Positions 1,430 through 46,686 of a stretch of 64,000 nt of DNA are shown here, piece by piece; position 1 is the stretch's first letter; every line of letters begins with the position of its first letter. Origin of the DNA: an uncultured Gammaproteobacteria bacterium (GTDB lineage: Bacteria; Patescibacteriota; Microgenomatia; CAZETR01; Amesbacteraceae); assembly GCA_964502885.1 (NCBI GenBank), contig CAZCXU010000001.1:93352-157351 (forward strand), in the 5' to 3' direction. The position numbers were made by a program, and so were the translations under genes. Under the pieces are notes generated by a model. That model was not told the origin of the DNA, made no database searches, and worked only from the letters and a program-made list of their open reading frames with translations.

Positions 1430-2485
1430 TTGGCGGGAATGAAACTAGTCAAAGAGACCCAACAGATTATTCCAGAGGCTGTCTCGGTTCTAAATAAAGG
1501 AGGATTGGTAATCTTCCCATGCGAGACGGTGTATGGTGTGGCGGCTGATGCCAGCAACGAGGCGGCAGTGAGAAGACTTAATGCGTACAAACAACGCCCA
1601 ACAGGAAAACCATATGCGATTATGGTTTCGGATATGGCCATGGCGCAACAATATGTAGAAATTAACCAGACTGCCAGAAACTTATATAAAAAGTTTTTAC
1701 CTGGACCGTTAACAATAGTGTCAAAAGGAAAACACAAAGTTGCCTCCGGAGTTGAGTCAGAAAACGGATCCTTGGGAGTGAGAATTCCAGATTACGATTT
1801 TTTACTAAGATTGATTACTTCATTTGGCAAGCCGATAGTCGCAACATCTGCAAACGCCAGTTACAAGAAACGACCTTATAAGCTGGATGATGTTTTTGAA
1901 AATATTTCCCAGGACCAAAAACAACTGATTGATTTGGCTATCGATGCAGGGGAGTTGCCACACAATGAACCGTCTACCGTAGTGGATACGACTTTGGACG
2001 ATGCAACAATACTTCGACAAGGAGAGATCAGATTTTCAGAGGAAAACAGAGTAATAAGCCGAAGCGAAGAGAACACCCAGAATATTGGCAAGGAATTGTG
2101 GCAGAAGTACGAACACTTTTTGCATCAGCGAGCAATCGTATTTGCCCTTTCAGGAGAAATGGGGGCGGGAAAAACGCAACTCACAAAAGGGATAGCCAAA
2201 GCGATGGGAATTACTGACACAGTTGTCTCCCCCACTTTTAGTCTGGAAATCGAATATGACAACTTGGTTCACATAGATGCCTGGAGAATTGAGAACGAGA
2301 AAGAAGTTGAACAAATGGGTTATGTAAAGCGAATTTCGGAAAAGAGCGTCATAGTGATCGAGTGGGCCGAAAAAATCGGAAACTTAATTCGCAGATATGA
2401 TGATGATGCGATTGTGGTTTGGATAAAGATCAAATATGGATTCAGCGAGAATGAACGAATTATCTCCTGGGGGGTTGAGGCTTAA
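1430..2485 (+). CDS. Fusion protein: threonylcarbamoyl-AMP synthase (TsaC/YrdC domain) + t6A ATPase TsaE
   Basis: The N-terminal half has the YrdC/Sua5 motifs LNKGGLVIFPCETVYGVAADASNEAAVRRLNAYKQRPTGKPYAIMV ... ATSANASYKK ... PSTVVD. The C-terminal roughly 130 aa has the TsaE signature SGEMGAGKTQLTKGIAKAMGI..VVSPTFSLEIEY..VHIDAWRI. It lies directly upstream of tsaD. Confidence 0.8.
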   Translation: MAGMKLVKETQQIIPEAVSVLNKGGLVIFPCETVYGVAADASNEAAVRRLNAYKQRPTGKPYAIMVSDMAMAQQYVEINQTARNLYKKFLPGPLTIVSKGKHKVASGVESENGSLGVRIPDYDFLLRLITSFGKPIVATSANASYKKRPYKLDDVFENISQDQKQLIDLAIDAGELPHNEPSTVVDTTLDDATILRQGEIRFSEENRVISRSEENTQNIGKELWQKYEHFLHQRAIVFALSGEMGAGKTQLTKGIAKAMGITDTVVSPTFSLEIEYDNLVHIDAWRIENEKEVEQMGYVKRISEKSVIVIEWAEKIGNLIRRYDDDAIVVWIKIKYGFSENERIISWGVEA

Positions 2486-2486
2486 G

Positions 2487-3539
2487 ATGAAAACGGCTGA
2501 ACTAATATTGGCTATTGATACATCGTGTGATGAAACAGCTGTATCTGTAACATGTGGCACAAATGTACTTGCAAACATAGTCTGGTCTCAGGCGCAGCAA
2601 CACGCGGAATTTGGCGGAGTGATGCCATCGCTGGCGAAACGGATGCACGCAGAGCGCATCACTGAAGTAACACAAAAAGCTCTGGGCCGGGCAGGTATAG
2701 ACAAAAGAGAAATTGACTGTGTGGCGGTCACTACTGGGCCGGGCCTGGCCATTGCGCTGGAGGTAGGAATTCTGGCCGCAAAAACCATTTCTAATGAACT
2801 CGGAATACCCTTACTGGCGATAAATCACATAGAAGGACATCTATTGAGCAACCTGGCTGTGCCACGCAATAAACCCGCAACCTCTTTTGAATTTCCAGCA
2901 TTAGGACTGGTCATTTCCGGGGGACACACAGAATTAGTACATATTAGGAAATTTGGGCAATATCAAATTCTTGCCCAAACGCAAGATGACGCACTAGGAG
3001 AGGCGCTCGACAAAGCAGCCCGAATGTTGGGATTGGGATATCCGGGTGGAGCTGTTTTGGAAAAGATGGCAAAGTTTGGAGATCCAAAGGCTTATTCCCT
3101 GCCATTACCTATGGCGAGGCAGAGAAATTTTGAGGCGTTTAGTTATTCCGGACTAAAAACAGCTTTTTTCAGGTTAACCAATGAAATCGGAACTAAGAGC
3201 TCAACGAGACAACAAACATACAACCTGGCGGCTACTTTTCAAAATCGCGCCTTTCAGCACCTTGAAAAAGTTTGTAGCGCTCAAATAGAAAGACTTGGCA
3301 ATGAAAAGCCAAAATACTTGTGGGTCGGTGGAGGGGTGGCAGCAAATGCTTTACTGCGCAAAAGACTTAGAAGAATGGCAGAAGACTTTGGACTAAAGAC
3401 CAGATTCCCCTATTCAAAAAAACTGATCGGCGATAATGCGGCAATGATAGGTGTTGCCGCTTATTTACGCCGCACTGCTGGCATTGATGACAATATTATC
3501 CAACCAGACAGACGACCGAGATGGACGATTGGAAGCTAA
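2487..3539 (+). CDS. tsaD: tRNA N6-adenosine threonylcarbamoyltransferase TsaD
   Basis: Starts MKTAELILAIDTSCDETAVSV and contains HIEGHL, SGGHTEL and GYPGG, the classic Kae1/TsaD motifs. I chose the ATG at 2487, 2 nt after the upstream stop, rather than the track start at 2436. Confidence 0.92.
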   Translation: MKTAELILAIDTSCDETAVSVTCGTNVLANIVWSQAQQHAEFGGVMPSLAKRMHAERITEVTQKALGRAGIDKREIDCVAVTTGPGLAIALEVGILAAKTISNELGIPLLAINHIEGHLLSNLAVPRNKPATSFEFPALGLVISGGHTELVHIRKFGQYQILAQTQDDALGEALDKAARMLGLGYPGGAVLEKMAKFGDPKAYSLPLPMARQRNFEAFSYSGLKTAFFRLTNEIGTKSSTRQQTYNLAATFQNRAFQHLEKVCSAQIERLGNEKPKYLWVGGGVAANALLRKRLRRMAEDFGLKTRFPYSKKLIGDNAAMIGVAAYLRRTAGIDDNIIQPDRRPRWTIGS

Positions 3540-3550
3540 GGCTCTATAAT
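3522..3550 (+). promoter_or_regulatory. Candidate sigma70-type promoter for the valS leader
   Basis: A perfect -10 TATAAT lies at 3545..3550. A 17-nt spacer precedes it, with a -35-like TGGACG at 3522..3527. The predicted start is near 3557. Confidence 0.4.
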
Positions 3551-3556
3551 GATGGC

Positions 3557-3707
3557 AGTATTGACAATTGAGCGGACCAGTCACCCGCGAGTCACGCCGA
3601 AGAACAGGGTCAACAATGTCTCTAAGTAGAACGGCACAACGAGAAGTAAATAAGGTGGTACCACGAGATCCCGCTCGTCCTTATAATGTTGAGGAAGCGG
3701 GTTTTTT
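3557..3707 (+). promoter_or_regulatory. T-box riboswitch leader (transcription attenuation type) controlling valS
   Basis: The T-box core AAATAAGGTGGTACCACGAG at 3648..3667 matches 12/14 positions of the AGGGUGGNACCGCG consensus, and its UGGU bulge is complementary to an ACCA acceptor end. It is followed by a terminator hairpin, CCCGCT..(loop)..AGCGGG plus TTTTTT, at 3670..3707. The alternative pairing ACGAG (3663-3667) with CTCGT (3674-3678) would form the antiterminator. GUC (Val) triplets occur in the putative Stem I (3561..3613, TTGAC...GTCAA). It sits directly upstream of a valyl-tRNA synthetase gene. Confidence 0.7.
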
Positions 3708-3714
3708 GTGAAAT

Positions 3715-5961
3715 ATGGACAAAGCATACGACCACAAAAAATATGAGGACCAAATCTATGAGATGTGGGAGACTAGTGGGGCATTTAAACCTGCAGCAAC
3801 CGGAACTCCATATACAGTTCTAATGCCCCCACCAAACGCAAATGCATCCCTGCACGCCGGCCATGCGATGTATACCATTGATGACATTGTTACCAGGTGG
3901 AAAAGAATGCAGGGCTACTCGACGGTGTGGATTCCAGGAATGGATCATGCAGGGTTTGAGACGCAGTTTGTTTATGAAAAGAACCTGGCTAAAGAAGGTA
4001 AATCGAGATTGAATTTTGACCGGAAAACCCTATATAACAACATCTTCCAGTTTGTAAAAAACAATTCGGGTTTGATATACAAACAGTTTCGGAAACTAGG
4101 GTTATCCGCTGATTGGGACCGCAGCGTATTTACTCTAGACAGACGTGTAGTCGAACGGGTTTATGAAACTTTTAGACGGATGGAAAGAGAGGGTAAGGTT
4201 TACAGGGACAACTACATGGTGAACTATTGCACACACTGCGGAACTTCCCTGTCTGAACTCGAAGTTGATCACGAGGAAAGAGTGGATCCGCTGTACTACT
4301 TAAGGTACGGCCCTTTTGTGTTGGCCACAGTAAGGCCGGAAACAAAGTTTGGAGATACAGCTGTGGCGGTTCATCCGGGCGACAACAGGTATACAAGTCT
4401 GGTAGGTAAGGAGATTGAAGTGGATGGGTTGATTGGAAAATTCAAGGTGAAAGTGATTGCAGATGAAGCTGTTGATCGGGAGTTTGGAACAGGAGCAGTA
4501 AAAGTAACCCCAGCACATGACCCGACTGATTTTGAGATGGGGAAACGTCACAATCTGGAAATAAAACAGGTAATTGGTCTTGATGGGCGATTAAACGAAA
4601 AGTCTGGTAAATATGCGGGTTTGAAAGTAGCTGAGGCGAGAAAGGCTGTTGTTGCGGATTTGCAGAGTGCTGGCTTACTGGAAAAAGTTGATGAGAATTA
4701 CAAACACGCGGTATCCATTTGCTACAAGTGTAAAAGAACGCTCGAACCCACAATCATCCCTAACTGGTTTGTACGCATAAACGATTTGAAAAAACCAGTT
4801 ATTGAAGCAGTAAATCGTGATGAGGTGAGGTTTTTTCCTAAGAAATTTAAGAGATTAATGTTGGACTGGTTAAAGAGAATGCACGACTGGCCCATCAGCC
4901 GGCAAATTGTCTGGGGAATTCGGATTCCGGTGTGGTATGAGTTGGATTTTCAAAAAGAAAATATTTGGGCGGGATGGCTGGATAAAGAGGGAAAGTTTCA
5001 ACAATCATCTGTTAGTCATGCTCTGAAACAGGGCACTCCCCTATCGGAAATTGTGGACGGGCTGCAATGGATCAGAACCAGCACAGGAGAGTCGGCCCCC
5101 AGATATGTGGTTTCAGAGGAGAAACCCGCGGACGGAAAAATATATTTGCCGGAGACAGACACCTTTGACACCTGGTTTTCCTCCAGCCAATGGCCACTAG
5201 TAACCCTGGATGAACATGAGTTTGCCACAAGATTCCCTTCCGATTTCATGGGCACATTGGAGGATATACTCCCCTTTTGGATTTCACGAATGATTTTGTT
5301 TGGAGAATATGTGAAACAAGGTGTTCCATTTAAACAGGTGTACTTGTGGTCAAAAGTGACTGATAGCAAGGGGCAAAAAATGAGCAAAAGCAAAGGAAAT
5401 GTGGTCAATCCGGTTGATTTTATTGATAAATACGGAGCTGATGCGGTAAGAATGGCTCTTGTTTTTGGTGTCGCTCCAGGGAGCTCAATCCCCTTTTCCG
5501 AAGGCAAAATTAGGGGCATGCGTAATTTTGCTAATAAACTTTGGAATGTGGCACGGTTTGTCTTTACGACTATTCAGGATACTGCTCAAGGAGAAGCAAT
5601 TTCCAACGAAGTACAAGAATCTTTGAATAGCCGTCTGGAGACAATTAGACAAAAGTCGGAGCTGGTTCAAAAAAAGGTCTCATTAAGTTTAGAGCACCTA
5701 CGTTTCAATGATGCTGCAGAATATATCTATGAATACGCCTGGCACGAATTCGCTGACAAAGATTTGGAATTTATAAAGACAAGAATTAATTCTGGAGCAC
5801 GAGTAAATGGCAGGTCAAAAAAGGATCTTACGGCTGCATTAATCAATATTCTGACAAGTGTTCACCCGTTAATGCCGTTTGTTTCAGAGGCAATCTGGCA
5901 GGAGGGTATCAGACAAAATCTATCAGGATTTACAGGAATGCTAATAAGAAAAGTCTGGTAG
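3715..5961 (+). CDS. valS: Valine--tRNA ligase (short form, 748 aa)
   Basis: Contains the HIGH-type motif PPPNANASLHAGHAM, the KMSKS motif (KMSKSKGN), and the class Ia editing and anticodon-binding regions (TWFSSSQWP, ISRQIVWG). There is no long C-terminal coiled coil. Confidence 0.95.
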   Translation: MDKAYDHKKYEDQIYEMWETSGAFKPAATGTPYTVLMPPPNANASLHAGHAMYTIDDIVTRWKRMQGYSTVWIPGMDHAGFETQFVYEKNLAKEGKSRLNFDRKTLYNNIFQFVKNNSGLIYKQFRKLGLSADWDRSVFTLDRRVVERVYETFRRMEREGKVYRDNYMVNYCTHCGTSLSELEVDHEERVDPLYYLRYGPFVLATVRPETKFGDTAVAVHPGDNRYTSLVGKEIEVDGLIGKFKVKVIADEAVDREFGTGAVKVTPAHDPTDFEMGKRHNLEIKQVIGLDGRLNEKSGKYAGLKVAEARKAVVADLQSAGLLEKVDENYKHAVSICYKCKRTLEPTIIPNWFVRINDLKKPVIEAVNRDEVRFFPKKFKRLMLDWLKRMHDWPISRQIVWGIRIPVWYELDFQKENIWAGWLDKEGKFQQSSVSHALKQGTPLSEIVDGLQWIRTSTGESAPRYVVSEEKPADGKIYLPETDTFDTWFSSSQWPLVTLDEHEFATRFPSDFMGTLEDILPFWISRMILFGEYVKQGVPFKQVYLWSKVTDSKGQKMSKSKGNVVNPVDFIDKYGADAVRMALVFGVAPGSSIPFSEGKIRGMRNFANKLWNVARFVFTTIQDTAQGEAISNEVQESLNSRLETIRQKSELVQKKVSLSLEHLRFNDAAEYIYEYAWHEFADKDLEFIKTRINSGARVNGRSKKDLTAALINILTSVHPLMPFVSEAIWQEGIRQNLSGFTGMLIRKVW

Positions 5962-6670: not shown

Positions 6671-8806
6671 TCAGTTATTCAAGATGAAATCAATGCTAAG
6701 CCTTAGTGGCTTTGAGCTCTGCGTATTATAACTGAGCTCGCCTGCTCTAGCAACTACAGGCGGATAATAGGTTGTCGAGTGCCAACTTGGAGGAAAATTT
6801 ATCGTGGAAGTCAAACGAGAAGTTGATCCTGGCTGATTTAGGAAATGAAGGAGGTAAGTAAATCTGGCAGAAACAGAACTTTTTTCCTCAAATTGAAGTT
6901 GGAACTCTGTGATTGCGTCAAGTTTTGGAATCTTAAACCCAAGCAGACTGATTCCTGACTGAAAATCTGGCTGGGAAACACTAATTGGCCAGGCAACTGA
7001 CCCTGTGAATGATTTTTTAATACTAATATTTTTTGATACTAACACCCAGAAGTACTCATCTCCCAATGCCTTGGACAGGCGGAAGTTGAGGGAGTGGGTA
7101 ATCCCCCCACCGGGCAACAGTACAGTTTCCAAATGATAGTTTGGCGCCATTACTTCAGAAGATGTGGATGTAACTGATGGATAAATTACCGAACTAGCAC
7201 AAGGAAGATGAGAGGTGCAAATTGGCATCGCGACTCCCCCACTCCAATTTATGTGTTGTAAAAGTGTGTCGCTGACGGATTGGTAGGAAATCAGGATGTG
7301 CCGGTTTTCTACCTGTCTGAATAAATAAACCAGGTCTGACATAGTGTCGGGTGTTCCAGTATTTAAATTTGTAAGTTTCTGCCAATCCCCCTCAGACAAA
7401 GAGAATACAAGGTCGGGGGACCAATTTTGAGATTTCTCAACAAACCAGGCGGCATACCTGGCTGAGAGATGAAAATCCGGTGAGTAATTATGATTGGAAA
7501 AATTCCAGATGTTTTTTTCGTAGATATCCTGAAATCCAGCTGGGCTTTGAATCAGGCCATCGATAGACTCAGCTATTTGTTGGGGAGTTTTTTCACTTAT
7601 GACTGAAATGCGGCCAGACATGATTTGCAGTAATTTCAACGACTTTACGATTCCCCCATCTGATGACATGCTGGGGTTTTCTTTTATAAGAGCTAAGACA
7701 TTAATCGGCCGAGATCCGTCAATAATTTGTTGATACGAATTTCCAAGATACACCAACTTACCTATATACGAGAGTATCTCTTTTGTAGTTATTTTGACTG
7801 ACTGCAGACTGGAACTGCTTGAATTGAGCGATGAAACTGTCGAAAGTTTTTCCTGAAAATCTGCAAATGCTGTACGAGCATGTAGTAACTGGCTCATAAG
7901 TGTCTGAGAATTGAATGATTGATTAGTAGCAGCTTGATTGACTTCTCTGATTGACAAATAGGATTGGCTTAATAGGTCAGACAGGTTTTGCGCTAGCGAC
8001 AATGGGAGTGGGTAGTTAAACATCATAGAGAAAAACGGGGAAAGGCCTGACGCTTTTATTAAAGGCCATGATGTTTTTTGGGCCACCGCAGACAACTTGA
8101 GAGCAGATCCAAAATCTGTTTTTGCATAATCGCTCAATGCGAAACCCAAAACAACCTGAAGTGACACTGTGTAGACAAGCAATAGCAATACGAAAACAAC
8201 AAACGACCGAATTATTATTTTTGACCAAGAAATAAATATGTTATGTCTGCGAGGTTTTTCATAAAGTCTTTTTACGAGTACCGGTGATGCCTTAGATGGG
8301 GCAGGAAGTTGTGTCAGGTTGTGCAAATTCTTTTTCAACAATAGCAGCAAAGAGTCCGGAAGTGGATTGTCTGCCGGCACCGGCACCACTTCAAACCGCA
8401 ACGGATACCTGCGGGCAAACTGAGCTACAAACTGAATCGCTGTCTGGACCATATGAGTGGTGGTGCTTTCAACTACCAAAATCAATTTGGCGTTTTGAGA
8501 AACAGCTCCAACGAGTAGGTGATGCAAATATGAAGTGCAGTATATTGACTGATTCAATGAGGGAGGACCAAACCCAACAAAATGATAGATGCACGAGAGG
8601 TGCAGGGGTGTCTGATTTGGAGATGTGCTGCCGATTTCACTGTGAACCTGAATTGTCTGAAGACAGGAAAATTGTACTGCAAGGTTTTTTGAAAGTTGAG
8701 TGACCTCACCAGATATGAGGACTGAATAACGGTTTGTAACTTCATTTGCAACTAATAAATTCTTATGCATTTGTTTATTTATAGCGGGCCATGAAGCGAG
8801 GTGCAA
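6671..8806 (-). CDS. DUF4012-like membrane protein
   Basis: 711-aa ORF with a single TM helix (IIIRSFVVFVLLLLVYTVSLQVVLGFAL) after a cytoplasmic N-region, followed by a long helical region. The segment INVLALIKENPSMSSDGGIVKSLKLLQIMSGR parallels the LLQNNYELRPTGGFMGSFAKVEF core of the clear DUF4012 protein at 57846..59279. The true start may lie downstream of 8806. Confidence 0.55.
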   Translation of the reverse strand: MHLASWPAINKQMHKNLLVANEVTNRYSVLISGEVTQLSKNLAVQFSCLQTIQVHSEIGSTSPNQTPLHLSCIYHFVGFGPPSLNQSIYCTSYLHHLLVGAVSQNAKLILVVESTTTHMVQTAIQFVAQFARRYPLRFEVVPVPADNPLPDSLLLLLKKNLHNLTQLPAPSKASPVLVKRLYEKPRRHNIFISWSKIIIRSFVVFVLLLLVYTVSLQVVLGFALSDYAKTDFGSALKLSAVAQKTSWPLIKASGLSPFFSMMFNYPLPLSLAQNLSDLLSQSYLSIREVNQAATNQSFNSQTLMSQLLHARTAFADFQEKLSTVSSLNSSSSSLQSVKITTKEILSYIGKLVYLGNSYQQIIDGSRPINVLALIKENPSMSSDGGIVKSLKLLQIMSGRISVISEKTPQQIAESIDGLIQSPAGFQDIYEKNIWNFSNHNYSPDFHLSARYAAWFVEKSQNWSPDLVFSLSEGDWQKLTNLNTGTPDTMSDLVYLFRQVENRHILISYQSVSDTLLQHINWSGGVAMPICTSHLPCASSVIYPSVTSTSSEVMAPNYHLETVLLPGGGITHSLNFRLSKALGDEYFWVLVSKNISIKKSFTGSVAWPISVSQPDFQSGISLLGFKIPKLDAITEFQLQFEEKSSVSARFTYLLHFLNQPGSTSRLTSTINFPPSWHSTTYYPPVVARAGELSYNTQSSKPLRLSIDFILNN

Positions 8807-12916: not shown

Positions 12917-14275
12917 ATGGATAAGGAAAAAACCTGGACAAGTGTACTCGCGTCCCTAAAAACTGAAGTGTCTGAGGGAATTTTTAACACCTATCTGAAA
13001 AATACTCACATTGTAGACATCCAGGAAAATGATCAACGAACAATTTTTGAAATAGGATGCAACTCCACATTTATAAGAAACACATTAGACCTTCGCTATC
13101 ACGGACAAATTGCTAGGGAATTATCCAGAGTAACAGGCAAAACAGCAGAGGTGGTAATTAAAGTTGCGGAAAAGAAAATTGAACTTGATGAAAAAGGAAC
13201 TCTTTTTGAGACACCCAAGGCCACCGTTTTTTCTGATGCATGGAGAAAGGCCAACCTGAAAGCTGACTTTACCTTTGAAAATTATGCTGTGTCCGGAAGC
13301 AACCAGATGGCGTATGCGGCCGCACAGGCCGTGGCGAAAAAATTGGGAGAAACATACAATCCATTGTTTATATACGGTGGGGTGGGGGTGGGGAAAACAC
13401 ATTTAATGCAAGCGATAGGTCACGAAGCCTTGCGAAATTCAAATGGACAGGTATTGTTTTGTTCCGGAGAGGAATTTACGAATGACCTAGTCGAAGCTAT
13501 TAGATTTAAAACTACGGATAAAGTTAGATCAAAGTATCGCAAAGTAAAACTTCTCATGATTGATGATGTGCAATTTATTGCCGGAAAACCCACAGTGCAG
13601 GAAGAATTTTTCCATACGTTTAACGCTATACAGCGCGACGGGGGTCAGGTCGTTATGACATCAGATAAGCCCCCCGGAGAAATTGCCAAGCTAGAGGAAA
13701 GGCTGAGAAGCCGGTTTGGGGCTGGCTTAATTGTCGACGTAGGGCCGGCAGACTTTGAATTGAGATCTGCAATTGTTCTAATTAAAGCCAAACAAAGAAA
13801 CATGGAAATCTCAATGGAAACAGCTCAAACGATTGCGGCAAATGTTACCGGAGTGCGAGAACTACAGGGGGCATTAATTAAACTGGAAACAGAAGAGCGA
13901 ATTCGGGGAAAAAAATTAGACATGGAGGAAATTTTGAAACTTTTGAATGTTCAAAACGAAGAAGCTATTAAATCCAGATTTATTACTCCAACTGAAGTCA
14001 TAAACCAGATCGGAAATTATTACGGAGTGGGCGTGCAACAACTTAAGGGTGAGAAAAGAACCAAGACGATTGTTTGGCCACGACAAATATTAATGTTTAT
14101 ATTACGCCACGATCTTAAACTACCATTGGAAGAAGTTGGAAGGCTGCTGGGAGGAAGAGACCACACCACAGTATTGCACGCCACAGACAAAGTCCGAGGG
14201 GAATTGGACCAGAACCATAAATTTGCAGCCGAAATGGCGGATGTTAAAAGAAAAATCTTTGGTGGTGGAGCATAA
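12917..14275 (+). CDS. dnaA: Chromosomal replication initiator protein DnaA
   Basis: Contains the AAA+ Walker A GGVGVGKTHLMQA, Walker B LLMIDDVQF, and the C-terminal DNA-binding domain (WPRQILMFILRHDLKLPLEEVGRLLGGRDHTTVLHA). Confidence 0.97.
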   Translation: MDKEKTWTSVLASLKTEVSEGIFNTYLKNTHIVDIQENDQRTIFEIGCNSTFIRNTLDLRYHGQIARELSRVTGKTAEVVIKVAEKKIELDEKGTLFETPKATVFSDAWRKANLKADFTFENYAVSGSNQMAYAAAQAVAKKLGETYNPLFIYGGVGVGKTHLMQAIGHEALRNSNGQVLFCSGEEFTNDLVEAIRFKTTDKVRSKYRKVKLLMIDDVQFIAGKPTVQEEFFHTFNAIQRDGGQVVMTSDKPPGEIAKLEERLRSRFGAGLIVDVGPADFELRSAIVLIKAKQRNMEISMETAQTIAANVTGVRELQGALIKLETEERIRGKKLDMEEILKLLNVQNEEAIKSRFITPTEVINQIGNYYGVGVQQLKGEKRTKTIVWPRQILMFILRHDLKLPLEEVGRLLGGRDHTTVLHATDKVRGELDQNHKFAAEMADVKRKIFGGGA

Positions 14276-14528: not shown

Positions 14529-15647
14529 ATGAAAACAACAGTTTTACAAAGTGATCTGGCAAAATGTTTGGGAACAGTCAGCAGAGTGATACCCAGCAGA
14601 GGGCAGTTGCCTGTGTTGGCAAATGTGCTATTGGAGGCACGCAAAGATGGATTGACCCTAGTAGCAACAAATCTGGAACTTGGAATTCGTGTAATGGTGG
14701 GGGGAAAGATTGAGGAGGAGGGTGACATAACTATTCCGGCGAAAAACTTAACTGAATTTGTATCATCGTTGCCTGCAGGGAGCGTTGATCTATCGACTGA
14801 TGGGGAGAAGATGCTTATTAAGGGCGGAAAGCTATCTGCGACCTTTACAGGGATTTCAGCGATGGAATTTCCGGTGGTACCAAAGATCGAAAGTGTACAA
14901 GGTGGACGAATAGTAAAGATTAAAAGGGCGATGATGGAAAAAGTTGCAAAACAAGTTGCTTTTGCTGCAGCTACAGATGAGAGTAGGCCAGTTTTGACAG
15001 GTGTGGTTTTTATGAGTGAGGGAAATATATTGAAAATTACGGCAAGTGATGGATTTCGATTGAGCAGGAGATTTATTGAGATGGAAAGGGGGTTATGGTT
15101 ATCGGATAAAAGGTTGATTCTTCCGGCAAGAACACTATTGGAGATGTCAAGAATTGCAGCAGAGGGTAAAAAGGAAGAGATTGAGATGGCTGAAATAGCT
15201 GAGAATAACCAGGTTATTATGGCTTACGATGGAATTCAGCTTACATCGCGGATACTGGAGGGTAATTTTCCTGATGTAGAAAAGATTATTCCCGTGGATA
15301 CCAGAACAAAGATTACTCTTGATAGGCAGGAAATGCTGCGGGCGGTTAAGGCAGTGGGGATATTTGCAAGGGACAGTTCGAATATTATCAGGCTTAGAAT
15401 TCAAGATGGCGGGATGATGGTGGAGGCAAGCGCTACTCAGACAGGAGAGAGCACTGTTGAATTGGAAGGGGAGAAGACTGGAGACGATGGACAGATTGCT
15501 TTCAATTACCGGTTTGTGTTGGACTTTTTGAATAGTGTGGATAGTGAGAGAGTTACCTTTGGAATGAATGACAGCCTGGCCTCAGGGTTGTTTGGAATTG
15601 ATGGTGACAATGAATTGCTGCACTTGATAATGCCGGTAAGAGTCTAA
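14529..15647 (+). CDS. dnaN: DNA polymerase III subunit beta (sliding clamp)
   Basis: 372 aa, beginning MKTTVLQSDLAKCLGTVSRVIPSRGQLPVLANVLLEA and ending LMPVRV. The position after dnaA and the three-domain length are typical. Confidence 0.95.
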   Translation: MKTTVLQSDLAKCLGTVSRVIPSRGQLPVLANVLLEARKDGLTLVATNLELGIRVMVGGKIEEEGDITIPAKNLTEFVSSLPAGSVDLSTDGEKMLIKGGKLSATFTGISAMEFPVVPKIESVQGGRIVKIKRAMMEKVAKQVAFAAATDESRPVLTGVVFMSEGNILKITASDGFRLSRRFIEMERGLWLSDKRLILPARTLLEMSRIAAEGKKEEIEMAEIAENNQVIMAYDGIQLTSRILEGNFPDVEKIIPVDTRTKITLDRQEMLRAVKAVGIFARDSSNIIRLRIQDGGMMVEASATQTGESTVELEGEKTGDDGQIAFNYRFVLDFLNSVDSERVTFGMNDSLASGLFGIDGDNELLHLIMPVRV

Positions 15648-17033: not shown

Positions 17034-17321
17034 TTAATGATGATTAATTTCTTCAAGTAATATGAGCGGAAGTTTGAGCAAATGATCCTTTTCTTCCTGA
17101 TAAGGGTCGGAGAAATGTTCATCTGTAGAGTGTGTTTCCACTTCGCGGCGAAGCTCTTCTGTGCTTTTGTGGAGGACCTGCCCAGCCCATTGCCAAAGCG
17201 GGTCAGCGTCTGTTTTGAACTGATCAAAATTATGACAGGAATTACAGATTTCAATTACGGCGTTTTCCAGACTGCTGACGACAGATGGATTTATGTAGTC
17301 AGGGTAGGCAAAAGTGTTCAT
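17034..17321 (-). CDS. Small acidic cytoplasmic hypothetical protein, translationally coupled to the VirB4-like gene
   Basis: 95 aa with no hydrophobic segment. Its start overlaps the VirB4-like stop by 4 nt. Confidence 0.5.
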   Translation of the reverse strand: MNTFAYPDYINPSVVSSLENAVIEICNSCHNFDQFKTDADPLWQWAGQVLHKSTEELRREVETHSTDEHFSDPYQEEKDHLLKLPLILLEEINHH

Positions 17322-19183
17322 TTTGATTCAGGAACCAGTATTGGTTTGGTTTGAGTTTCAGCTTGTTTTTGAGCTAATATTTCGGAGGGTTTGGTGGTAA
17401 TTAGCTTGTGTTCGTCCGGGGATGCTACAAAGCGAACAGCTACGTGATTGTTTCCTGCAAAAAACAGACCTTCTCCAACGTTTGCTGACAGGAGAAGGTG
17501 TTTTTCTCCCTCGGAGAGATAGAAGACCTGGGAAATTTTGTCGACTCCCGCTGGTGATTGTTTCATGAGTATTTGTAGGGAAGAACTGGTGACGATGGCT
17601 TTGCCGTAATCAGTGTTCAAAAAGTCTTCTACGTCCTGAGTAATAGTGGTAAGACCGAGAAAATACTTACGAGCGCGTTTGGCGACGCTGTAGAGGAAAC
17701 TGGCTGAGTCGGGATAACGCATGAGATACCAGGCCTCGTCTACCACAAGAATGCGTTTCTTGAGGTCGCGGCGCATTTTTGTCCAGATATAGTCAAGAAT
17801 GAGAAAGATAGCAATGGGCTTGAGAGAATCTTCGAGATCGCGGACAGAAAAAACTGTAAATTGATTTTTTAGTTGAATATTTGATGGCTGATCGACTATT
17901 CCGGTAAAACTTCCCTTTACAAATCGTTCTAGGCGATCAGCAAGAGATAGGGCTATGGGTTCTTCCATGCCAATGAAAGCTTTGTAAAGATCTTCCATTA
18001 GCGGGGGAGTATTTTTTTGTGTAGCGGGATCAGGGGTGATACCTTTCATACGATAAGCGAGATTGAGGGCGCGATCGAGAAGTGCGTCTTCTGTGGGGCT
18101 AAGGTTTCCCATGATGACTTTGAACATGGAATGCAGCGATTGAATTTTGAGATTAAGCTCGTTTTCATCTGAATTTTGGGTAAGAAGGGAAAGATCAAAG
18201 GGGTTGATGCGATTTTGAGAATTGTAGGAGAAATTGATGTAGTCGCCTCCTACGGCATCACAGAGGGCTTTGTATTCGTTTTCAGGATCTATAACGATTA
18301 TTTCTGTACCAAACATCATGGAACGAACCAGTTCAAGTTTAATGGTGTAAGACTTTCCCGCACCGGATTTGGCGAATACTACTGAGTTGGCGTTTTCCAG
18401 AGAGAAGCGATCAAAAATGACCAAACTGCCGTTGTGCTGATTTATTCCATAGAGGATGCCGTCATTGCTGGTGAGCTCTGATGAGGTGAAAGGGAAGGTG
18501 GTGGCCAGAGAGGTGGTGTCCATGTTTCTGGTGACCATAAGATGGTCGATACAGGTGGGGAGGGTGGTTTTGAAACCTTCAGCCTGCTGGAGGAGTGTGG
18601 GTGTAGAGGCCACTAGAAGAGATGAAAGGGAGCTAGTGACCTGTTTACTGGCAGTTTCAAGTTCGGAGGGGGAATCGGCGGGAATGGTGACATAGAGAGA
18701 GAATTGAAAGAAGCGTTCGATGCCTTTGACGAGTTGATCCTGAAGAGCCAGAGCGTCTTCGAGTTTGGCTTGGGTTACAGGATCGACAACGCGGCCGCGT
18801 TGGGCGTCAGTGTTTAGCTCGGCTTCCATTTCGGCAATCTTTCGACGCAGATCGTCGAGCGTGGACTTGCTTTCTACAGGATAGATGAACATGGAAATAT
18901 TTAGTGAATGGTCAAAATTAATGATGGGACTAAGCCAGTTGCTGGAGACGAAGCGGCGGTTTATTGAGGTGAAGTAGGTGCGGAAATATGTGTCGTTGAT
19001 TTTTAATGAATTGAAATCGATGGTAATGTTTTGTGGGGCGATGATATCCTTGACTGTTTTGGCCTGGGATAATTCTTTTTGGGGGAGAGCCATATTTGTG
19101 TCTGGGACGTTACCGGAGACCTGAGTTGCAGGAGTGGCAGTTTTTTTGACGGGGGTAAGGTTAGGGAGTTTTGGTAGCTTCAT
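17318..19183 (-). CDS. VirB4/TrbE/PrgJ-type type IV secretion ATPase
   Basis: Contains Walker A VVFAKSGAGKSYTIKLE and Walker B KRILVVDEAWYLM. The N-terminal domain has the usual APQNITIDFNSLKINDTYFRTYF...YP pattern of Gram-positive VirB4 homologs. The C-terminal segment is GLTTITQDVEDF...LQILMKQ. Confidence 0.85.
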   Translation of the reverse strand: MKLPKLPNLTPVKKTATPATQVSGNVPDTNMALPQKELSQAKTVKDIIAPQNITIDFNSLKINDTYFRTYFTSINRRFVSSNWLSPIINFDHSLNISMFIYPVESKSTLDDLRRKIAEMEAELNTDAQRGRVVDPVTQAKLEDALALQDQLVKGIERFFQFSLYVTIPADSPSELETASKQVTSSLSSLLVASTPTLLQQAEGFKTTLPTCIDHLMVTRNMDTTSLATTFPFTSSELTSNDGILYGINQHNGSLVIFDRFSLENANSVVFAKSGAGKSYTIKLELVRSMMFGTEIIVIDPENEYKALCDAVGGDYINFSYNSQNRINPFDLSLLTQNSDENELNLKIQSLHSMFKVIMGNLSPTEDALLDRALNLAYRMKGITPDPATQKNTPPLMEDLYKAFIGMEEPIALSLADRLERFVKGSFTGIVDQPSNIQLKNQFTVFSVRDLEDSLKPIAIFLILDYIWTKMRRDLKKRILVVDEAWYLMRYPDSASFLYSVAKRARKYFLGLTTITQDVEDFLNTDYGKAIVTSSSLQILMKQSPAGVDKISQVFYLSEGEKHLLLSANVGEGLFFAGNNHVAVRFVASPDEHKLITTKPSEILAQKQAETQTKPILVPESK

Positions 19184-21181: not shown

Positions 21182-23962
21182 ATGGACGATATGAGCAGCG
21201 AATCTAGACGGTCTGGTAGACTTGATTTTGACTCTGGCTTGGACGCTTCCCAAGTTAACAGAAGTGGGGATGTTGTAGGCCGAAATGTTCAAGAGTGGGG
21301 AGGGCGGGGGAGGCAGGTTGATGCGGAAGATGATAATTTAGAAATTTTCAAAAAAAAGTTGGAAGAAGCGGAGAACTTTTCTAGTATTCAGACTTATGTA
21401 GTGGGATATTTGGAGAGAGCTGAACAGAGAAACATCGTCGAGAGAAACGCAGCTTTGGAATTAATTCTGGAGAGGTCGAGATCATTTAAGGAGGTGGACT
21501 TAGGAATTCAAAGAGCTTTAAAAATCTCTCTAAAGGAGGAAAGGTTTGAAGAGTTGAAACAACTGAAAGACGAACAAGCAGCGTTGATGGTGGTGGCTGA
21601 TTCTTTAGATATGTTTGAAGGGGTAAGGCAGGTGGCTAGAGCAGGCCAGGGGGATTATTTACGAGGGAAGAGAGACGCGGATGAAATCTTTTCTGGAGCT
21701 GTGGGGCCTAATGTGTCAAATATAAGGGGTTCAGAGAAATTGCAAGGAATGGTGGACAGATACCAAGCCACAGCTGTAGGGGTGTGGGAATGGGCAAAAA
21801 GTGTGGCAAAGGGCGCGGATTATGAAGGTCGAACAAAAGAAGGTTTAGAGGCGTTGGGATGGGGAACTATCCCGTTTAGAGAAACATTGAACTTGGCAAG
21901 GGTTATAACGGAAGAAACTGTTTCTCCACCGGAAACTCCCCCCAGAGTTGGTCCATCTGGTGGTGACCCATCTCGAGGACCAGAAAGTGAGATTTTTGCT
22001 GAAAGGGCAAGGAGAGCAGAAGAGTTGTTGATAGCAACGGGATTAAGTAACAATGGTTTGCCAACATCAATTGCTGAGTTGGATGCTATTGAACAAGGGG
22101 CTCCATACATCGAAAAAACAGGCAGACCTTTGTATGGTGGAATTTTGCACAACCTGCTTAATAAATACATGACAGTTTCGGTGACTGAGGGAGAGAAAAG
22201 ATTGGGGTTGGCTAGTAAGGTGGAGGCTAATTTTACTTCTGATGAGTTGCTACTAATTAACGACAGAGATGTGAGGTTTTGGGTTCAAGTGTTTGCCTTT
22301 GGGTTTGGGTTGGGGTCTCGAACGAAAATTAATTCACATTTAAATGAGAATCAGGGTGGTTTTGTGAAGAATGCTTCAGGAGAAGCTCCCATGCAGGGGA
22401 GAAGTGTGGGTGAAATGTTAAATGCAATTGCAGGTAGGGATGTTGAGAATGATGAAAGAATGTGGGGAGAATATCGTATGGAGGCGGGGCGACGGGTGGC
22501 TCCCTCTAAGGATAATACATGGAATAAAGCTTTTGGAAATGTGCAGTATGGTGAATGGGAGGTTTTGCAGGTGGCGATGATGAGAGCAATAGTGTTGCGA
22601 GGGAATCCAGAGATTTCTTCGGATGAACTCGACACAATAATTCGTACTAATAAAAATTTACGTATGGGTTTAGCTGGGGCGAGGATGTATGCAATGGCGA
22701 CACATATGGGAGATCAGTTTGCAGTCGAATCTAAACACTTTTTAGCAACGGCGGCATATTTTGAGTTCCATTTTCAAGCAGCAGCCGTGGATAGATTGGC
22801 AAAATTATCATTACCACACAGGTTTAGGAGTTATATGAATTTAAACTCAGACTTATTTAAGGACTCGCAGGGAAACTGGAGTGATGAAACACTTATGCAT
22901 CGCAGATTATTTGCCCCTGATGTAATGCGATCAGTTATATGTTCTCCTGCTGTGTTTTCGCGAGGAGTACAAGGACCTAATCCGGAAGAATCAAGATATG
23001 AACCACAGGAGACAATCTTAGACTTGGCCATAAGGGGCATAGAAGTTCGACAAGATGCGTTGCAAACAGGGGTAACTCCTACCCGTATTTATAGTTTTGG
23101 AGTAAATGCGGCCGAAAAAATATTTAATTTGGCTTTTGGGGGTGGGACTCCCCCCGAAGGGCCGGATGTAAAGTTTGACAGAGATAAGGGATGGGCGTGG
23201 AATATGGGGCAGGAAATTCTGGCTACAGCGCGGGATTTGGGTTGGATTATGGAATATGAAAATACCATTAAACAAGAAGGGGTGAGTATGACTCCAGCTG
23301 AAGCGTCTCGACGAAGAAGAGCGATAGAACATAATATTCAGAGGTTGGGTATCACTAGGTTTATGGCTGGGTTGGGAATGAGAATAGAAAGAGGCGAAGT
23401 GCACAATTTAACCGATTTGGCGGCTTGGGCGGTGGGGATGGTGCTTGATAGAAGCGCCAAGTTTGTACATCAGATGAATTTGCCGGACGGAAGTGTCAAG
23501 CAGTTGGAGTTTCGCTGGGTATCCAAGGAGGACTCAGAATGGGTTGTAGAACATGGGTTGAATAAAAGAGATGAGAAGTGGGTGGATACGAGAAGCCCTT
23601 GGTCTTATGTTTATGAGTTAGTAACCAGGAGAGCACCTAATCGTAGAGGTGAGTGGGAAACTAAGCAGGGTGGAGAAGATGATTTATTGATTCAGGTATT
23701 GGTAGATAAGGCAGGAGGGGATGCTTCGGAAGCGGCTATGCACAGAAGAGACCAACTGAATCATCGGGTTAGAAAGTGGCGTTGGGGAGTAGGTGACTAC
23801 TTCTTGGGGTGTGGAGGGACTGCTACTAAAGAGGATGTGAGGCTTCGGGAGAGCTTTGAAGAAAAAATTGCGGGTGGTAGGGATATGCCCAAAATAGACA
23901 GGTTAACTCCATATCAAAAGGTGTACAACACATTGGACTTTTCTGATTACGGTAAAAGCTAA
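21182..23962 (+). CDS. Large orphan protein (926 aa) with no recognisable domain, signal peptide or TM helix
   Basis: The ORF is long and uninterrupted, with a coiled-coil-like N-region (EIFKKKLEEAENF...EERFEELKQLKDEQAAL). It is the only plus-strand gene inside the minus-strand T4SS-like gene string. No motif I recognise is present. Confidence 0.7.
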   Translation: MDDMSSESRRSGRLDFDSGLDASQVNRSGDVVGRNVQEWGGRGRQVDAEDDNLEIFKKKLEEAENFSSIQTYVVGYLERAEQRNIVERNAALELILERSRSFKEVDLGIQRALKISLKEERFEELKQLKDEQAALMVVADSLDMFEGVRQVARAGQGDYLRGKRDADEIFSGAVGPNVSNIRGSEKLQGMVDRYQATAVGVWEWAKSVAKGADYEGRTKEGLEALGWGTIPFRETLNLARVITEETVSPPETPPRVGPSGGDPSRGPESEIFAERARRAEELLIATGLSNNGLPTSIAELDAIEQGAPYIEKTGRPLYGGILHNLLNKYMTVSVTEGEKRLGLASKVEANFTSDELLLINDRDVRFWVQVFAFGFGLGSRTKINSHLNENQGGFVKNASGEAPMQGRSVGEMLNAIAGRDVENDERMWGEYRMEAGRRVAPSKDNTWNKAFGNVQYGEWEVLQVAMMRAIVLRGNPEISSDELDTIIRTNKNLRMGLAGARMYAMATHMGDQFAVESKHFLATAAYFEFHFQAAAVDRLAKLSLPHRFRSYMNLNSDLFKDSQGNWSDETLMHRRLFAPDVMRSVICSPAVFSRGVQGPNPEESRYEPQETILDLAIRGIEVRQDALQTGVTPTRIYSFGVNAAEKIFNLAFGGGTPPEGPDVKFDRDKGWAWNMGQEILATARDLGWIMEYENTIKQEGVSMTPAEASRRRRAIEHNIQRLGITRFMAGLGMRIERGEVHNLTDLAAWAVGMVLDRSAKFVHQMNLPDGSVKQLEFRWVSKEDSEWVVEHGLNKRDEKWVDTRSPWSYVYELVTRRAPNRRGEWETKQGGEDDLLIQVLVDKAGGDASEAAMHRRDQLNHRVRKWRWGVGDYFLGCGGTATKEDVRLRESFEEKIAGGRDMPKIDRLTPYQKVYNTLDFSDYGKS

Positions 23963-24020: not shown

Positions 24021-25751
24021 TTAGGATGTACCACCTGCGGGAGGGACAGGTCTTCGAATGTTGGCTTCTTTGGCTTTGGAGACTTGCTGACCAGCCGAAG
24101 TCAATTGTCCCATGGTGTCTTTGGCCATCTTTTCAACAAAGTCAGAAGGATCTACAGACTTACAGAACATGTTCTTAACCATGGTTGCTATGTTGGGGGC
24201 GAATGACATGGCCCCTACGAAAACTGCATATTGGACGAAAATATTACTGGGCATGTCAAATAAGGGAAAGTTGGCTTGGTTGTTAAAAAAGAAGCCTATG
24301 TCTCCGGCGAATCCTGGGACGGGAGTGCGAGTGTCAAACCCTGCATTAATTAGAATTGCTAAGAGAGCATATGTCACAAAAATTGAGGCATTGCCGATGA
24401 GACAAAGAAGCCATTTTTTAAATCCACCAAAATCAGATTTCTTCGATGGGATAATATCGAAAATAATTATTAGCGGGCCGGCGACAACCAGAAGATTAAA
24501 AGTAATAAAGGCGACCACAAATTGACCAATAATTCTGGCCCAGACGTAAATTGACCAAAGGAAGAAACCAAGAATGAAACCAGCTATGAGAACAACCACT
24601 CCTCCAGAAGCAAGATTAAGCAGTGCAGCTAGAACTATAGTGAGAATTATCAGTACTATGGAAACAACTATCCAAAAGGCAAGGAAATGCCAGACAAAAT
24701 CAAAACCGCCTCCAGCTAAGGTGGACATAGCAAGCGGCAAGTCAGTTATAATTGTCATGCCGATAGCTGTTTGGGCAAAATAAAGCATGCCAATAATTGC
24801 GGAAATGGCTAAGTACATCAGGTCAATTACGAAGCCGGCAATGGCGTATGAAAAGAGAACCAACACAATAGATATGGCAATGCGGGGAATAACCATTTGA
24901 ATTGTTACCGAGACTTGCGGAGATATTTTTGAACGGAACATAACCATAAAACCAGCAATGATGATAATCAGGGTGGTAATTAATAGTGCGATGTTTCGAG
25001 TGGCGATCCAAAATGCTCGGGTAGGAGAGTCTGTCGTTCCGGTACCACCCAAGCCAAGTCTTTCGTAACCACTTCCTTGCGCAAACGTGTCCGAGACAAT
25101 GTTGAGTTTTGAAGCAAGTTGTTTAGTTTCAGACCAGGCTGAGGGGAGGGTGTCAATTTGTGATGAGATATAGTAGGTAAGCTTGAGTACTCCAATATAA
25201 CTTTGACCTATGAATCCATATTTATTAACAAATGCCAGATCAGAAGAAGAAAAATTTTGAGTGACGAGCATGCTGCGGGCAAGATCTATCGCTGTGAGTA
25301 AATCAGTGATGTTTTGCAAAAGGGCTGCTGGATCAGGAGAAGATATAACTGAGGGAAATAACATCGAAGAGAGAGAGTTGAGGATCCAGTTTACTTGAGC
25401 GTAGGTGTAGCGCTCACCAAAAATTTCGTCGGGATTTGTATTGTCGAAAACTTTTTGCTGGAACTCCTGAATTGAAGGATTGTACCAAGGGTGTGGTGTT
25501 ACTTCGGCGAAGAACAAACGGGAGATTTCGTAGATGAGATAGGAGCAACGTGCTGCATCACCGAAAGGGTTGGGGGAAATGGCTTGACAGGCAGCATCTG
25601 CCTGAGCGCACAGCGGCTCGGCGGGATCACAGGTCGGTTGGGCAAGAACCGGTGATGGTGTGATAAATACTGTTAACCCTATGAATAGAAACGAAAGGGT
25701 AAAAAGGTATTTTTTAATCAGCATTGAAAGATGTTTTGTCATGGAAGACAT
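24021..25751 (-). CDS. VirB6/TrbL-like polytopic membrane protein candidate
   Basis: 576 aa with a signal/anchor (LFTLSFLFIGLTVFITPSPVLAQP) and a roughly 230-aa extracytoplasmic region carrying 4 Cys. At least 6 long hydrophobic helices follow (for example ALLITTLIIIIAGFMVMF, IAISIVLVLFSYAIAGFVIDLMYLAISAIIGMLYF, WHFLAFWIVVSIVLIILTIVLAALL), ending in a hydrophilic tail. The call rests on topology and neighbourhood, not on a sequence motif. Confidence 0.5.
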   Translation of the reverse strand: MSSMTKHLSMLIKKYLFTLSFLFIGLTVFITPSPVLAQPTCDPAEPLCAQADAACQAISPNPFGDAARCSYLIYEISRLFFAEVTPHPWYNPSIQEFQQKVFDNTNPDEIFGERYTYAQVNWILNSLSSMLFPSVISSPDPAALLQNITDLLTAIDLARSMLVTQNFSSSDLAFVNKYGFIGQSYIGVLKLTYYISSQIDTLPSAWSETKQLASKLNIVSDTFAQGSGYERLGLGGTGTTDSPTRAFWIATRNIALLITTLIIIIAGFMVMFRSKISPQVSVTIQMVIPRIAISIVLVLFSYAIAGFVIDLMYLAISAIIGMLYFAQTAIGMTIITDLPLAMSTLAGGGFDFVWHFLAFWIVVSIVLIILTIVLAALLNLASGGVVVLIAGFILGFFLWSIYVWARIIGQFVVAFITFNLLVVAGPLIIIFDIIPSKKSDFGGFKKWLLCLIGNASIFVTYALLAILINAGFDTRTPVPGFAGDIGFFFNNQANFPLFDMPSNIFVQYAVFVGAMSFAPNIATMVKNMFCKSVDPSDFVEKMAKDTMGQLTSAGQQVSKAKEANIRRPVPPAGGTS

Positions 25752-42560: not shown

Positions 42561-42624
42561 TTATTGATACTAAGTCTAGCATTATTTGGTTTTTGGGGCA
42601 TGATCTGAGAAAATGTGTGGGCTT

Positions 42625-42709
42625 GGAGGATATCCCGAACGGCTGAGGGAATGGTTTGCTAAACCATGAAGGCGCAAGTCTTCGGTGGGTTCGACTCCCA
42701 CATCCTCCG
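42625..42709 (+). tRNA. tRNA-Ser (anticodon GCU)
   Basis: The cloverleaf has acceptor GGAGGAT/ATCCTCC, anticodon stem ATGGT/ACCAT with loop TTGCTAA, a long variable arm GAAGGCGCAAGTCTTC, and T-arm GTGGG-TTCGACT-CCCAC. The discriminator is G and CCA is not encoded. Confidence 0.9.
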
Positions 42710-42712
42710 CAA

Positions 42713-42928: not shown

Positions 42929-42974
42929 AGGGTTTTTTAGTTGTATTACAATTTGTTGTTTTTGGGGATGTGGG

Positions 42975-43035
42975 CGGAAGGGGCGAATATTGAACTTCGT
43001 TCAAGAATCTCGCAAGACAGCGGAAGGGGCGAGAT
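42975..43035 (-). repeat. Two partial echoes of the 3' end of tRNA-Ser(UGA)
   Basis: CGGAAGGGGCGAGAT at 43021..43035 is identical to the 15 nt at the tRNA 3' end (43096..43110). CGGAAGGGGCGA at 42975..42986 is a 12-nt copy followed by a degenerate T-arm-like hairpin (TTGAAC-TTC-GTTCAA). Confidence 0.8.
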
Positions 43036-46659: not shown

Positions 46660-46686
46660 CTTTTTGACGGATTACGTTTGATTTTA

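Follow-up and report, generated by a model that had tools for sequence, protein, structure and literature searches.

How does a bacterium of the candidate phyla radiation (CPR) control valS, its gene for valyl-tRNA synthetase (ValRS), when the 175-nt gap between tsaD and valS carries, in that order, a promoter-like site, a T-box 14-mer and a GC-rich hairpin followed by U6? The question is raised by a 64-kb stretch of contig CAZCXU010000001.1 (the window, meaning the whole stretch of DNA analysed, to whose first letter all coordinates refer), in which valS is the only aminoacyl-tRNA synthetase gene. Our answer is that the leader of this gene, called W here, is probably a valine-specific T-box riboswitch that would control valS by transcription attenuation from a minimal scaffold. 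Judged by its sequence, W is a T-box in its discriminator, its switch and the logic of its specifier, and in its decoding it resembles the short-Stem-I class of the Actinobacteria. Four related leaders upstream of valS (L170, L161/L162, L089 and L081) were compared with it. The elements of the locus are as follows.

3522..3550, + strand: promoter-like site TGGACG-17 nt-TATAAT, sigma-70-type, with 10 of 12 consensus matches
3562..3594, + strand: ultrashort Stem I of 33 nt, from a pair count on W, L170, L089 and L161
3580..3582, + strand: specifier codon GUC (Val), followed by A3583, at loop positions 4-6
3596..3635, + strand: Stem II, present in the minimum free energy fold, its lower helix covarying
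3636..3651, + strand: single-stranded purine-rich linker ACAACGAGAAGUAAAU, from the sequence, with no stable helix predicted
3652..3682, + strand: antiterminator (discriminator core), from the alignment to Rfam model RF00230, with no non-canonical pairs
3670..3707, + strand: intrinsic terminator, consisting of a stem with a 2-nt bulge, a loop at 3683-3690 and U6 at 3702-3707
3715..5961, + strand: valS, the regulated gene, encoding a valyl-tRNA synthetase of 748 aa (Pfam tRNA-synt_1 and Anticodon_1; homologs are valine--tRNA ligases)
2436-3539: tsaD, the upstream neighbour of valS (Pfam TsaD)

A T-box core that competes with a terminator

The T-box core reported in a first-pass annotation of this DNA is an exact 14-mer, AAGGTGGTACCACG (= AAGGUGGUACCACG), at 3652-3665. 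With up to two mismatches allowed it is the sole match in the 64-kb window, where 0.19 are expected by chance, and when the window was shuffled 100 times, at least one match of this quality arose 17 times. Further GGTGGTACC sites at 14873 and 25049 (- strand) both lie within coding sequence and were discarded. The expectation that the T-box covariance model would recognise the leader held for the discriminator and failed for everything else: at the gathering threshold Rfam found no T-box anywhere in the window, and with permissive filters RF00230 aligned 3648-3682, with all pairs canonical, to model positions 183-216, which represent the T-box sequence and the antiterminator. This local match scores 26.9 bits, below the gathering score; its E value is 2.8e-4 in a search of the region and 0.052 in one of the entire window. 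Nothing in W was aligned 5' of model position 183, and the permissive Rfam scan of the entire window returned no second T-box.

The antiterminator consists of helix A1 (AAGG/CCUU, 3652-3655 with 3679-3682) and helix A2 (ACGAG/CUCGU, 3663-3667 with 3674-3678), separated by the 7-nt T-box bulge UGGUACC (3656-3662) and closed by the loop AUCCCG (3668-3673). The terminator pairs 3670-3675 with 3696-3701 and 3678-3682 with 3691-3695, and its 5' strand is formed by the 3' strands of A1 and A2, so the two structures are mutually exclusive. Folded alone, the terminator has an energy of -15.3 kcal/mol and the antiterminator -6.5 kcal/mol; for the whole leader the two states reach -32.3 and -23.5 kcal/mol, respectively. 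An antiterminator/terminator switch with a U tract had been claimed on first inspection, and folding in both states bears this out, the strands overlapping and the terminator being about 9 kcal/mol stronger. T-boxes are usually built in this way, the antiterminator prevailing only with the help of tRNA.

Terminator topology and U tract are common to L170, L081 and L161, in which 0-10 nt separate the end of the U tract from the AUG; in these three and in W, tracts of U5-U7 stand directly behind a GC-rich stem. The 3' strand of the hairpin resembles a Shine-Dalgarno (SD) sequence in W (GAGGA), L170 (AAGGAGG) and L081 (GAGGG). In L089 (2950-3003) the T-box bulge and A1/A2 are present, and the competing helix, AGCCGAA/UUUGGCU, is not followed by a U tract and stops 2 nt short of the AUG; this Woesebacteria-like leader may act on translation rather than transcription. 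A 47-nt segment comprising the discriminator is identical at 44 of 47 positions between W and L170, compared with only 43% identity at third codon positions of their valS genes and 62-63% identity of the ValRS proteins, which argues for purifying selection on the discriminator.

A valine codon in the loop of an ultrashort Stem I

At the 5' end of W, a C-stem UGAC/GUCA (3562-3565 with 3591-3594) is followed by a 4-nt bulge AAUU (3566-3569), by a tandem GA (3570-3571) facing GA (3589-3590) in a K-turn-like manner, and by a 4-bp hairpin GCGG/CCGC (3572-3575 with 3585-3588) that ends in an A3576/C3584 mismatch and a 7-nt terminal loop, CCAGUCA (3577-3583). A K-turn fold is predicted from this sequence. 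Three GUC triplets had been put forward as specifier candidates, near 3580, 3591 and 3609. The first is the specifier (3580-3582) and the other two fall away, since GUC 3591-3593 is part of the 3' strand of the K-turn C-stem and GUC 3609-3611 belongs to the Stem II apex. W, L170 and L161 share the loop CCAGUCA, L089 has CUAGUCC and L081 GGAGUCU, so that GUC occupies loop positions 4-6 in all five leaders, on stems of differing sequence and always upstream of valS. It would pair with tRNA-Val(GAC). The C at its third position conforms to the 'C rule' of T-boxes (PMC7583486).

The stems that carry this loop change in sequence and keep their pairing. The lower stem, of 3-4 bp, is UGAC/GUCA in W, GGC/GCC in L170 and AAGC/GCUU in L089; the 4-nt bulge is found in the same three leaders, GA facing GA in W and L089 and GA facing AA in L170; and the hairpin, of 4-6 bp, is GCGG/CCGC, GCUAG/CUAGC and GUCUAU/AUAGAC, respectively. 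L161 has a hairpin GUUGU/ACAAC, a lower stem GGC/GCU and a 21-nt hairpin inserted at the K-turn bulge. When pairs were counted over W, L170, L089 and L161, 96.4% of cells were paired and 6 of 7 pairs were altered on both sides; sliding one partner by 1-3 columns lowered the paired fraction to 22-36%, and 1 of 500 shuffles was as high. This tool-based covariation test covered Stem I, because complete leaders vary too much in Stem II and IIA/B for alignment with MAFFT, and the remaining helices were tabulated by hand. Stem I of L081 is ambiguous: the Rfam fold places an ACC in an internal loop, and the alternative is a 3-bp hairpin with the loop GGAGUCU, accompanied by an extra 10-bp hairpin.

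The insert of L161 (2828-2848, approximately; UGUCAU-ACAAGAAG-GUGACA) sits exactly at the site of the 4-nt K-turn bulge of W, L170 and L089, and turns the K-turn into a three-way junction.

What lies between specifier and discriminator

Stem II of W has a lower helix GCCG/CGGC (3596-3599 with 3632-3635), a variable apical hairpin (3604-3627) and, between them, a purine-rich internal loop resembling an S-turn, with AAGA(A) at 3600-3604 opposite (GU)AGAA at 3626-3631. The lower helix covaries, being GCGGG/CCCGC in L170, GACCG/CGGUC in L161 and CCGCU/AGCGG in L081, and the loop strands, 5' AAGAA and 3' GUAGAA, are the same in W and L170. Rfam places the counterparts in L170 and L081 on the Stem II S-turn of the model (GAA...AGUA), and an S-turn fold is likewise predicted for W. 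With the first base of Stem I taken as nt 1, the codon of W occupies positions 19-21, the 5' purines 39-43 and the AGA of the 3' strand 67-69; Stem I and Stem II together measure 74 nt. The apex of Stem II is rich in pyrimidines (UCUCU at 3619-3623 in W, UUUUU in L170, UUUUUU in L161) and complementary to the conserved purine linker that precedes the T-box (GAGAAG at 3641-3646 in W, AAGAAG in L170, GAGAAU in L161). This could be a tertiary pairing of apex and linker that substitutes for missing elements, or a coincidence of low-complexity sequence.

The linker itself was compared with the motif 5'-RRRxG-Stem III-AA-3' (PMC7583486). Its AGAAG (3642-3646) fits RRRxG and is followed by a single U (U3647) and then by AA (3648-3649), so no Stem III is possible in W, and the IIA/B pseudoknot is missing too, Stem II and helix A1 being only 16 nt apart. 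The distal motifs of Stem I are also missing, as the first reading of the locus had remarked: no AG bulge or platform is detectable in W, where RF00230 aligns nothing in this region, and in L170 and L081 Rfam collapses 73 and 48 Stem I model positions, respectively, to 5-6 nt. The 20 nt before the T-box bulge are the same in L170 (UUAUUAAGAAGCAAAUAAGG against ACAACGAGAAGUAAAUAAGG), where they are preceded by a IIA/B element of about 30 nt; from the sequence, W looks like L170 minus this pseudoknot of about 30 nt and plus a longer apex of Stem II. The element reads GCC-loop-GGC-GUAAUC-AAGC in L170, where GCUU of the loop pairs with AAGC, and CGG-AGUUGC-CCG-UAAUA-GCAA in L161, where UUGC pairs with GCAA, so that the IIB pseudoknot covaries between the two (GCUU/AAGC and UUGC/GCAA). 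Stem III is regular in L081, a weak AU helix in L161 and at best a 4-bp GCUU/AAGC in L170.

Transcription and translation signals of valS

The perfect TATAAT noticed upstream of valS is there, at 3545-3550, and its -35 partner lies inside the final codons of tsaD. Transcription of W is likely to start at about 3557, roughly 7 nt past the TATAAT box, which gives a leader of about 158 nt to the ATG, close to the 150 nt first estimated. In 4 of 4 related leaders a -10 box, consensus or extended, likewise stands a few bases 5' of Stem I. As also observed at first pass, the U tract ends 7 nt 5' of the ATG at 3715 with no SD-like motif between them; W carries no SD in the last 18 nt before the AUG. 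An SD-like 4-mer at -20..-4 precedes 3 of the 36 long ORFs (>=200 aa) in the window, compared with 22% of random 17-mers, in a rough count that takes the first ATG of each ORF as its start codon. Shine-Dalgarno sequences seem little used in this genome, and on that count a valS without one is the norm of the genome and not a peculiarity of the gene.

The N-terminus encoded from ATG 3715, MDKAYDHKKYE, is kept in relatives, which indicates that the annotated start is probably 16 codons late: the public valS protein (P0001) has 732 aa and begins at M17 (window 3715-3765). The first-pass annotation had called the genome CPR-like, and the attribution is sound, since the closest ValRS proteins, at 57-69% identity, are those of Candidatus Amesbacteria, Roizmanbacteria and Collierbacteria, and the gene order Sua5/TsaE-TsaD-valS-L25-DUF4012 is common to the window and Amesbacteria contigs; on both grounds the window is assigned to the Microgenomates branch of the CPR, and the genome is called Amesbacteria-like.

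Leaders of related valS genes

Related leaders were obtained by scanning all fetched valS loci, together with the contigs of closer ValRS proteins, for the core. The first-pass annotation had staked the T-box reading on conservation of the core upstream of related valS genes, and it is present there in L170, L161/L162, L089 and L081. L170 (P0012) comes from groundwater and its ValRS is 62-63% identical to that of the window; L161/L162 (P0003) has a ValRS of 66% identity and the same tsaD-valS synteny; the ValRS of L081 is 48% identical, and that of L089 is 44% identical and groups with Woesebacteria at 67-70%. L170 and L081 align to RF00230 from end to end, with 42.6 and 45.2 bits (E ~1e-7), and in both Rfam recognises Stem II, stem IIA with an F-box-like CGUAA, a Stem III and the discriminator.

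In GTDB species representatives and JGI metagenomes, a ValRS search reached no more than about 50% identity, and the Saccharibacteria, WWE3, Taylorbacteria and Moranbacteria valS loci from this search have no T-box core. The contigs of eight relatives (P0004, P0005, P0006, P0007, P0009, P0010, P0011 and P0016) carry a leaderless-like valS with no T-box, and that of P0008 has no T-box core upstream of the gene. In the leaderless-like relatives valS begins 6-12 nt behind a -10 box or overlaps the upstream gene. A TAAAAT, TATAAT or TACAAT box, often after TG, lies within the 20-40 nt 5' of valS at L082, L085, L087, L090, L091, L001, L163, L164, L166 and L167. These sequences suggest that valS mRNAs are leaderless or near-leaderless where the T-box is absent.

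In a quick neighbour-joining tree of ValRS, built without support values, the leader-bearing CPR loci fall into four separate subclades, and the Chloroflexi and Firmicutes outgroups all have a valS T-box. Given both, an ancestral leader with repeated loss fits better than a single recent gain. L095 was set aside as a CPR example because its discriminator is almost the same as the one at the Chloroflexi locus L008. The metagenome-assembled genomes of L001 and L003 are labelled 'uncultured Gammaproteobacteria bacterium', and their ValRS proteins fall inside the CPR clade, beside WWE3/Microgenomates loci; these labels are probably wrong.

Comparison with characterized T-boxes

The closest likeness is to the actinobacterial ileS T-boxes ('class II' of TBDB; Mycobacterium tuberculosis, M. 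smegmatis and Nocardia farcinica), with which W was compared through reviews and later papers. A short hairpin with the specifier in its terminal loop is the hallmark of the translational T-boxes of Actinobacteria (PMC3896937, citing Vitreschak 2008; PMC7583486). Like them, W has a terminal-loop specifier on a short hairpin, a K-turn-like motif and no distal platform, an S-turn-like purine loop of the GAA/GUAGA type in Stem II, a C at the third codon position, a UGGN bulge and the A1/A2 discriminator core. The spacing is nearly equal, Stem I and Stem II of W with their 74 nt being set against the 'T77' construct of N. farcinica ileS, in which the codon is at 16-18 and the Stem II purines are A38/A39 and A69-G70-A71 (PMC7583486; PMC10651847). 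The suggestion that W is a reduced T-box like the short actinobacterial forms stands on these features: the terminal-loop specifier over a K-turn-like motif, the GAA/GUAGA of Stem II and the N. farcinica-like spacing. L170 and L161, unlike W, also share with the ileS T-boxes a IIA/B pseudoknot with an F-box-like CGUAA. W differs from the ileS T-boxes in regulating valS, with the codon GUC and not AUC, in its Microgenomates (CPR) lineage, in an output that is a terminator with a U tract and not an SD sequestrator, in its smaller size without IIA/B pseudoknot and Stem III, and in the 4 nt of its K-turn-like bulge.

With the canonical valS T-boxes of Firmicutes and Chloroflexi (RF00230), W shares the gene, the amino-acid specificity, the competition of antiterminator and terminator, the U tract and the same 14-mer (AGGUGGUACCACG is common at those loci). 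Their Stem I, unlike that of W, is long, carries the specifier in an internal loop and has an AG bulge and a distal loop platform that stacks on the tRNA elbow; they also have IIA/B and Stem III, which W lacks, and Stem II is present in both. From the K-turn to the end of A1, W measures 121 nt and scores 26.9 bits, compared with 212-242 nt and 94-122 bits for canonical valS leaders in the same scans. The glyQS T-boxes, the archetype of a minimal transcriptional T-box, are like W compact and devoid of a IIA/B pseudoknot, and they act on transcription, as W would. Their reduction is the reverse of that seen in W: they have given up Stem II and retain Stem III and the platform of a long Stem I, whereas W retains Stem II and is without platform and Stem III.

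The mechanism and structure of T-boxes are known from work on Firmicutes and Actinobacteria. According to current reviews, a T-box that acts on transcription cannot do without the platform of a long Stem I, the discriminator with its Stem III hardly varies, and T-boxes with a short Stem I act on translation and rely on Stem II together with the IIA/B pseudoknot (PMC7583486). TBDB sought T-boxes with a truncated Stem I in Actinobacteria only (PMC7778990). Our literature search found no report of a T-box in CPR/Patescibacteria; several key T-box papers were outside its reach, and an earlier description is possible.

Elsewhere in the window

The genes dnaA (12917-14275) and dnaN (14529-15647) are adjacent, and for that reason the chromosomal replication origin probably lies in or near the intergenic region at 12.1-12.9 kb. 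A 621-aa protein encoded at 17318-19183 (- strand) has a TraG-type P-loop/AAA_10 domain like that of a conjugation or type IV secretion ATPase. A tmRNA at 40240-40639 (- strand, 94 bits) adjoins a loose tRNA cluster (region 40240-53190), in which four genes for tRNA-Ser and two for tRNA-Arg are interspersed with glycosyltransferase genes and tRNA-Val is absent. Five large ORFs (576-1220 aa) are without a Pfam match at E <= 1e-5; several of them start with segments that resemble signal peptides or transmembrane stretches:

21182-23962, + strand: large ORF without a Pfam match
25798-29460, - strand: large ORF without a Pfam match
6671-8806, - strand: large ORF without a Pfam match
36914-38773, + strand: large ORF without a Pfam match
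24021-25751, - strand: large ORF without a Pfam match

Discussion

How might so small a leader sense tRNA? In the mechanism we propose, the ultrashort Stem I would form first in the nascent RNA, its loop CCAGUCA offering GUC to the anticodon of tRNA-Val(GAC), and the S-turn-like loop of Stem II (GAA/GUAGA) would dock on the codon-anticodon duplex, as it does in the actinobacterial ileS T-boxes. The 3'-ACCA of an uncharged tRNA would pair with UGGU of the T-box bulge and stabilise the weak antiterminator (A1 and A2), and RNA polymerase would then read through into valS. If the tRNA were charged or absent, the terminator, stronger by 9 kcal/mol, would form and transcription would stop at U6, 7 nt before the ATG. 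The UGGU bulge predicts A73 as the discriminator base of the tRNA, and A73 is usual in bacterial tRNA-Val. We infer tRNA binding, termination in vivo and operation without platform, pseudoknot or Stem III; by analogy with known structures, the parts that contact tRNA, namely the codon, the S-turn purines and the UGGU bulge, are all intact in W. Because valS is essential and a strong terminator lies 7 nt upstream of it, some antitermination should be required.

Several observations weigh against this account. W has no distal platform in Stem I, a part that T-boxes of the transcriptional kind 'generally require', no IIA/B pseudoknot, deletion of which cut tRNA binding about 1,200-fold in N. farcinica ileS, and no Stem III, reported to be indispensable for the discriminator (PMC7583486, PMC10651847). 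Its K-turn-like bulge has 4 nt and not the usual 3 nt, its 26.9 bits are far under the RF00230 gathering score of 93, and most close CPR relatives are without any valS leader. The comparison comprises five leaders only, among which Stem I of L081 and Stem II of L089 have no confident fit, and neither the window nor 32 related CPR loci contain a tRNA-Val gene from which the anticodon and position 73 could be read.

The fullest form of our reading is accordingly tentative, and we put it a little short of even: W would be a functional minimal transcriptional T-box of about 146 nt from K-turn to U tract, for which a specifier hairpin, an S-turn and a UGGN bulge suffice, and a reduced descendant of an ancestral valS T-box common to CPR, Chloroflexi and Firmicutes.

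Could the same T-box sensor act mainly on translation, or at both levels, with the hairpin blocking the ribosome landing site of full-length mRNA and uncharged tRNA opening it? We consider this unlikely, although it explains part of the data. Short and ultrashort Stem I elements are otherwise known from translational T-boxes (PMC7583486, PMC7778990), the alternative helix of L089 lacks a U tract, the 3' strand of the hairpin is SD-like in W, L170 and L081, and the hairpin abuts the start codon in all leaders, at 7 nt in W and 0-2 nt in L170, L081 and L089. The SD-like run of W is, however, 19 nt from the AUG, and the need to pair with the conserved CCUU of helix A1 dictates a purine run of this kind. 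SD sequestration is also an improbable output in a genome that hardly uses SD sequences, and the U5-U7 tracts right after the GC-rich stem in W, L170, L081 and L161 are the signature of an intrinsic terminator, for which reason transcription attenuation is favoured.

It is less probable still, and in our view hard to credit, that W is the decaying relic of a T-box, which has lost pseudoknot and Stem III, no longer senses tRNA and persists as a leaky constitutive attenuator. The absence of elements reported as essential (PMC7583486, PMC10651847) is what a relic would show, and the outright loss of the leader in most relatives indicates that loss is tolerated in the clade. Decay would not be expected to leave a discriminator identical to that of L170 at 44 of 47 positions when synonymous divergence is saturating, nor the same specifier loop in W, L170 and L161 on covarying stems, and a non-responsive terminator of -15 kcal/mol before an essential single-copy synthetase gene would be costly. 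Chance resemblance, that is, an ordinary promoter, 5' untranslated region and hairpin with a T-box-like 14-mer, might appeal to a sub-threshold Rfam match spanning only 35 nt and to the 17 of 100 shuffles with a 14-mer of up to two mismatches, but it is effectively refuted by the Val codon inside a covarying hairpin, the discriminator conserved in L170, and the homologous leaders at the same position in relatives that align full-length to RF00230. The exact match directly upstream of the sole aminoacyl-tRNA synthetase gene of the window and the correct geometry of bulge and helices with an overlapping terminator also speak against it.

A valine-specific T-box acting by attenuation would combine a short decoding module of the actinobacterial type and a terminator in one leader, and W is moreover without pseudoknot and Stem III and yet under purifying selection. 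If the fullest form of our reading is true, nature can do without elements that studies of Bacillus and Actinobacteria had marked as indispensable, and control of the kinetic, transcriptional kind can go together with a short Stem I. If W is functional, it would define a smaller core for tRNA sensing, useful for engineering and structural work, and would bear on the question of which T-box class is ancestral. It would also document amino-acid-responsive riboregulation in the CPR, whose regulation is almost unexplored. The patchy distribution of the leader in Microgenomates, with a leaderless-like valS in most relatives, is an instance of a regulatory RNA lost during genome reduction.

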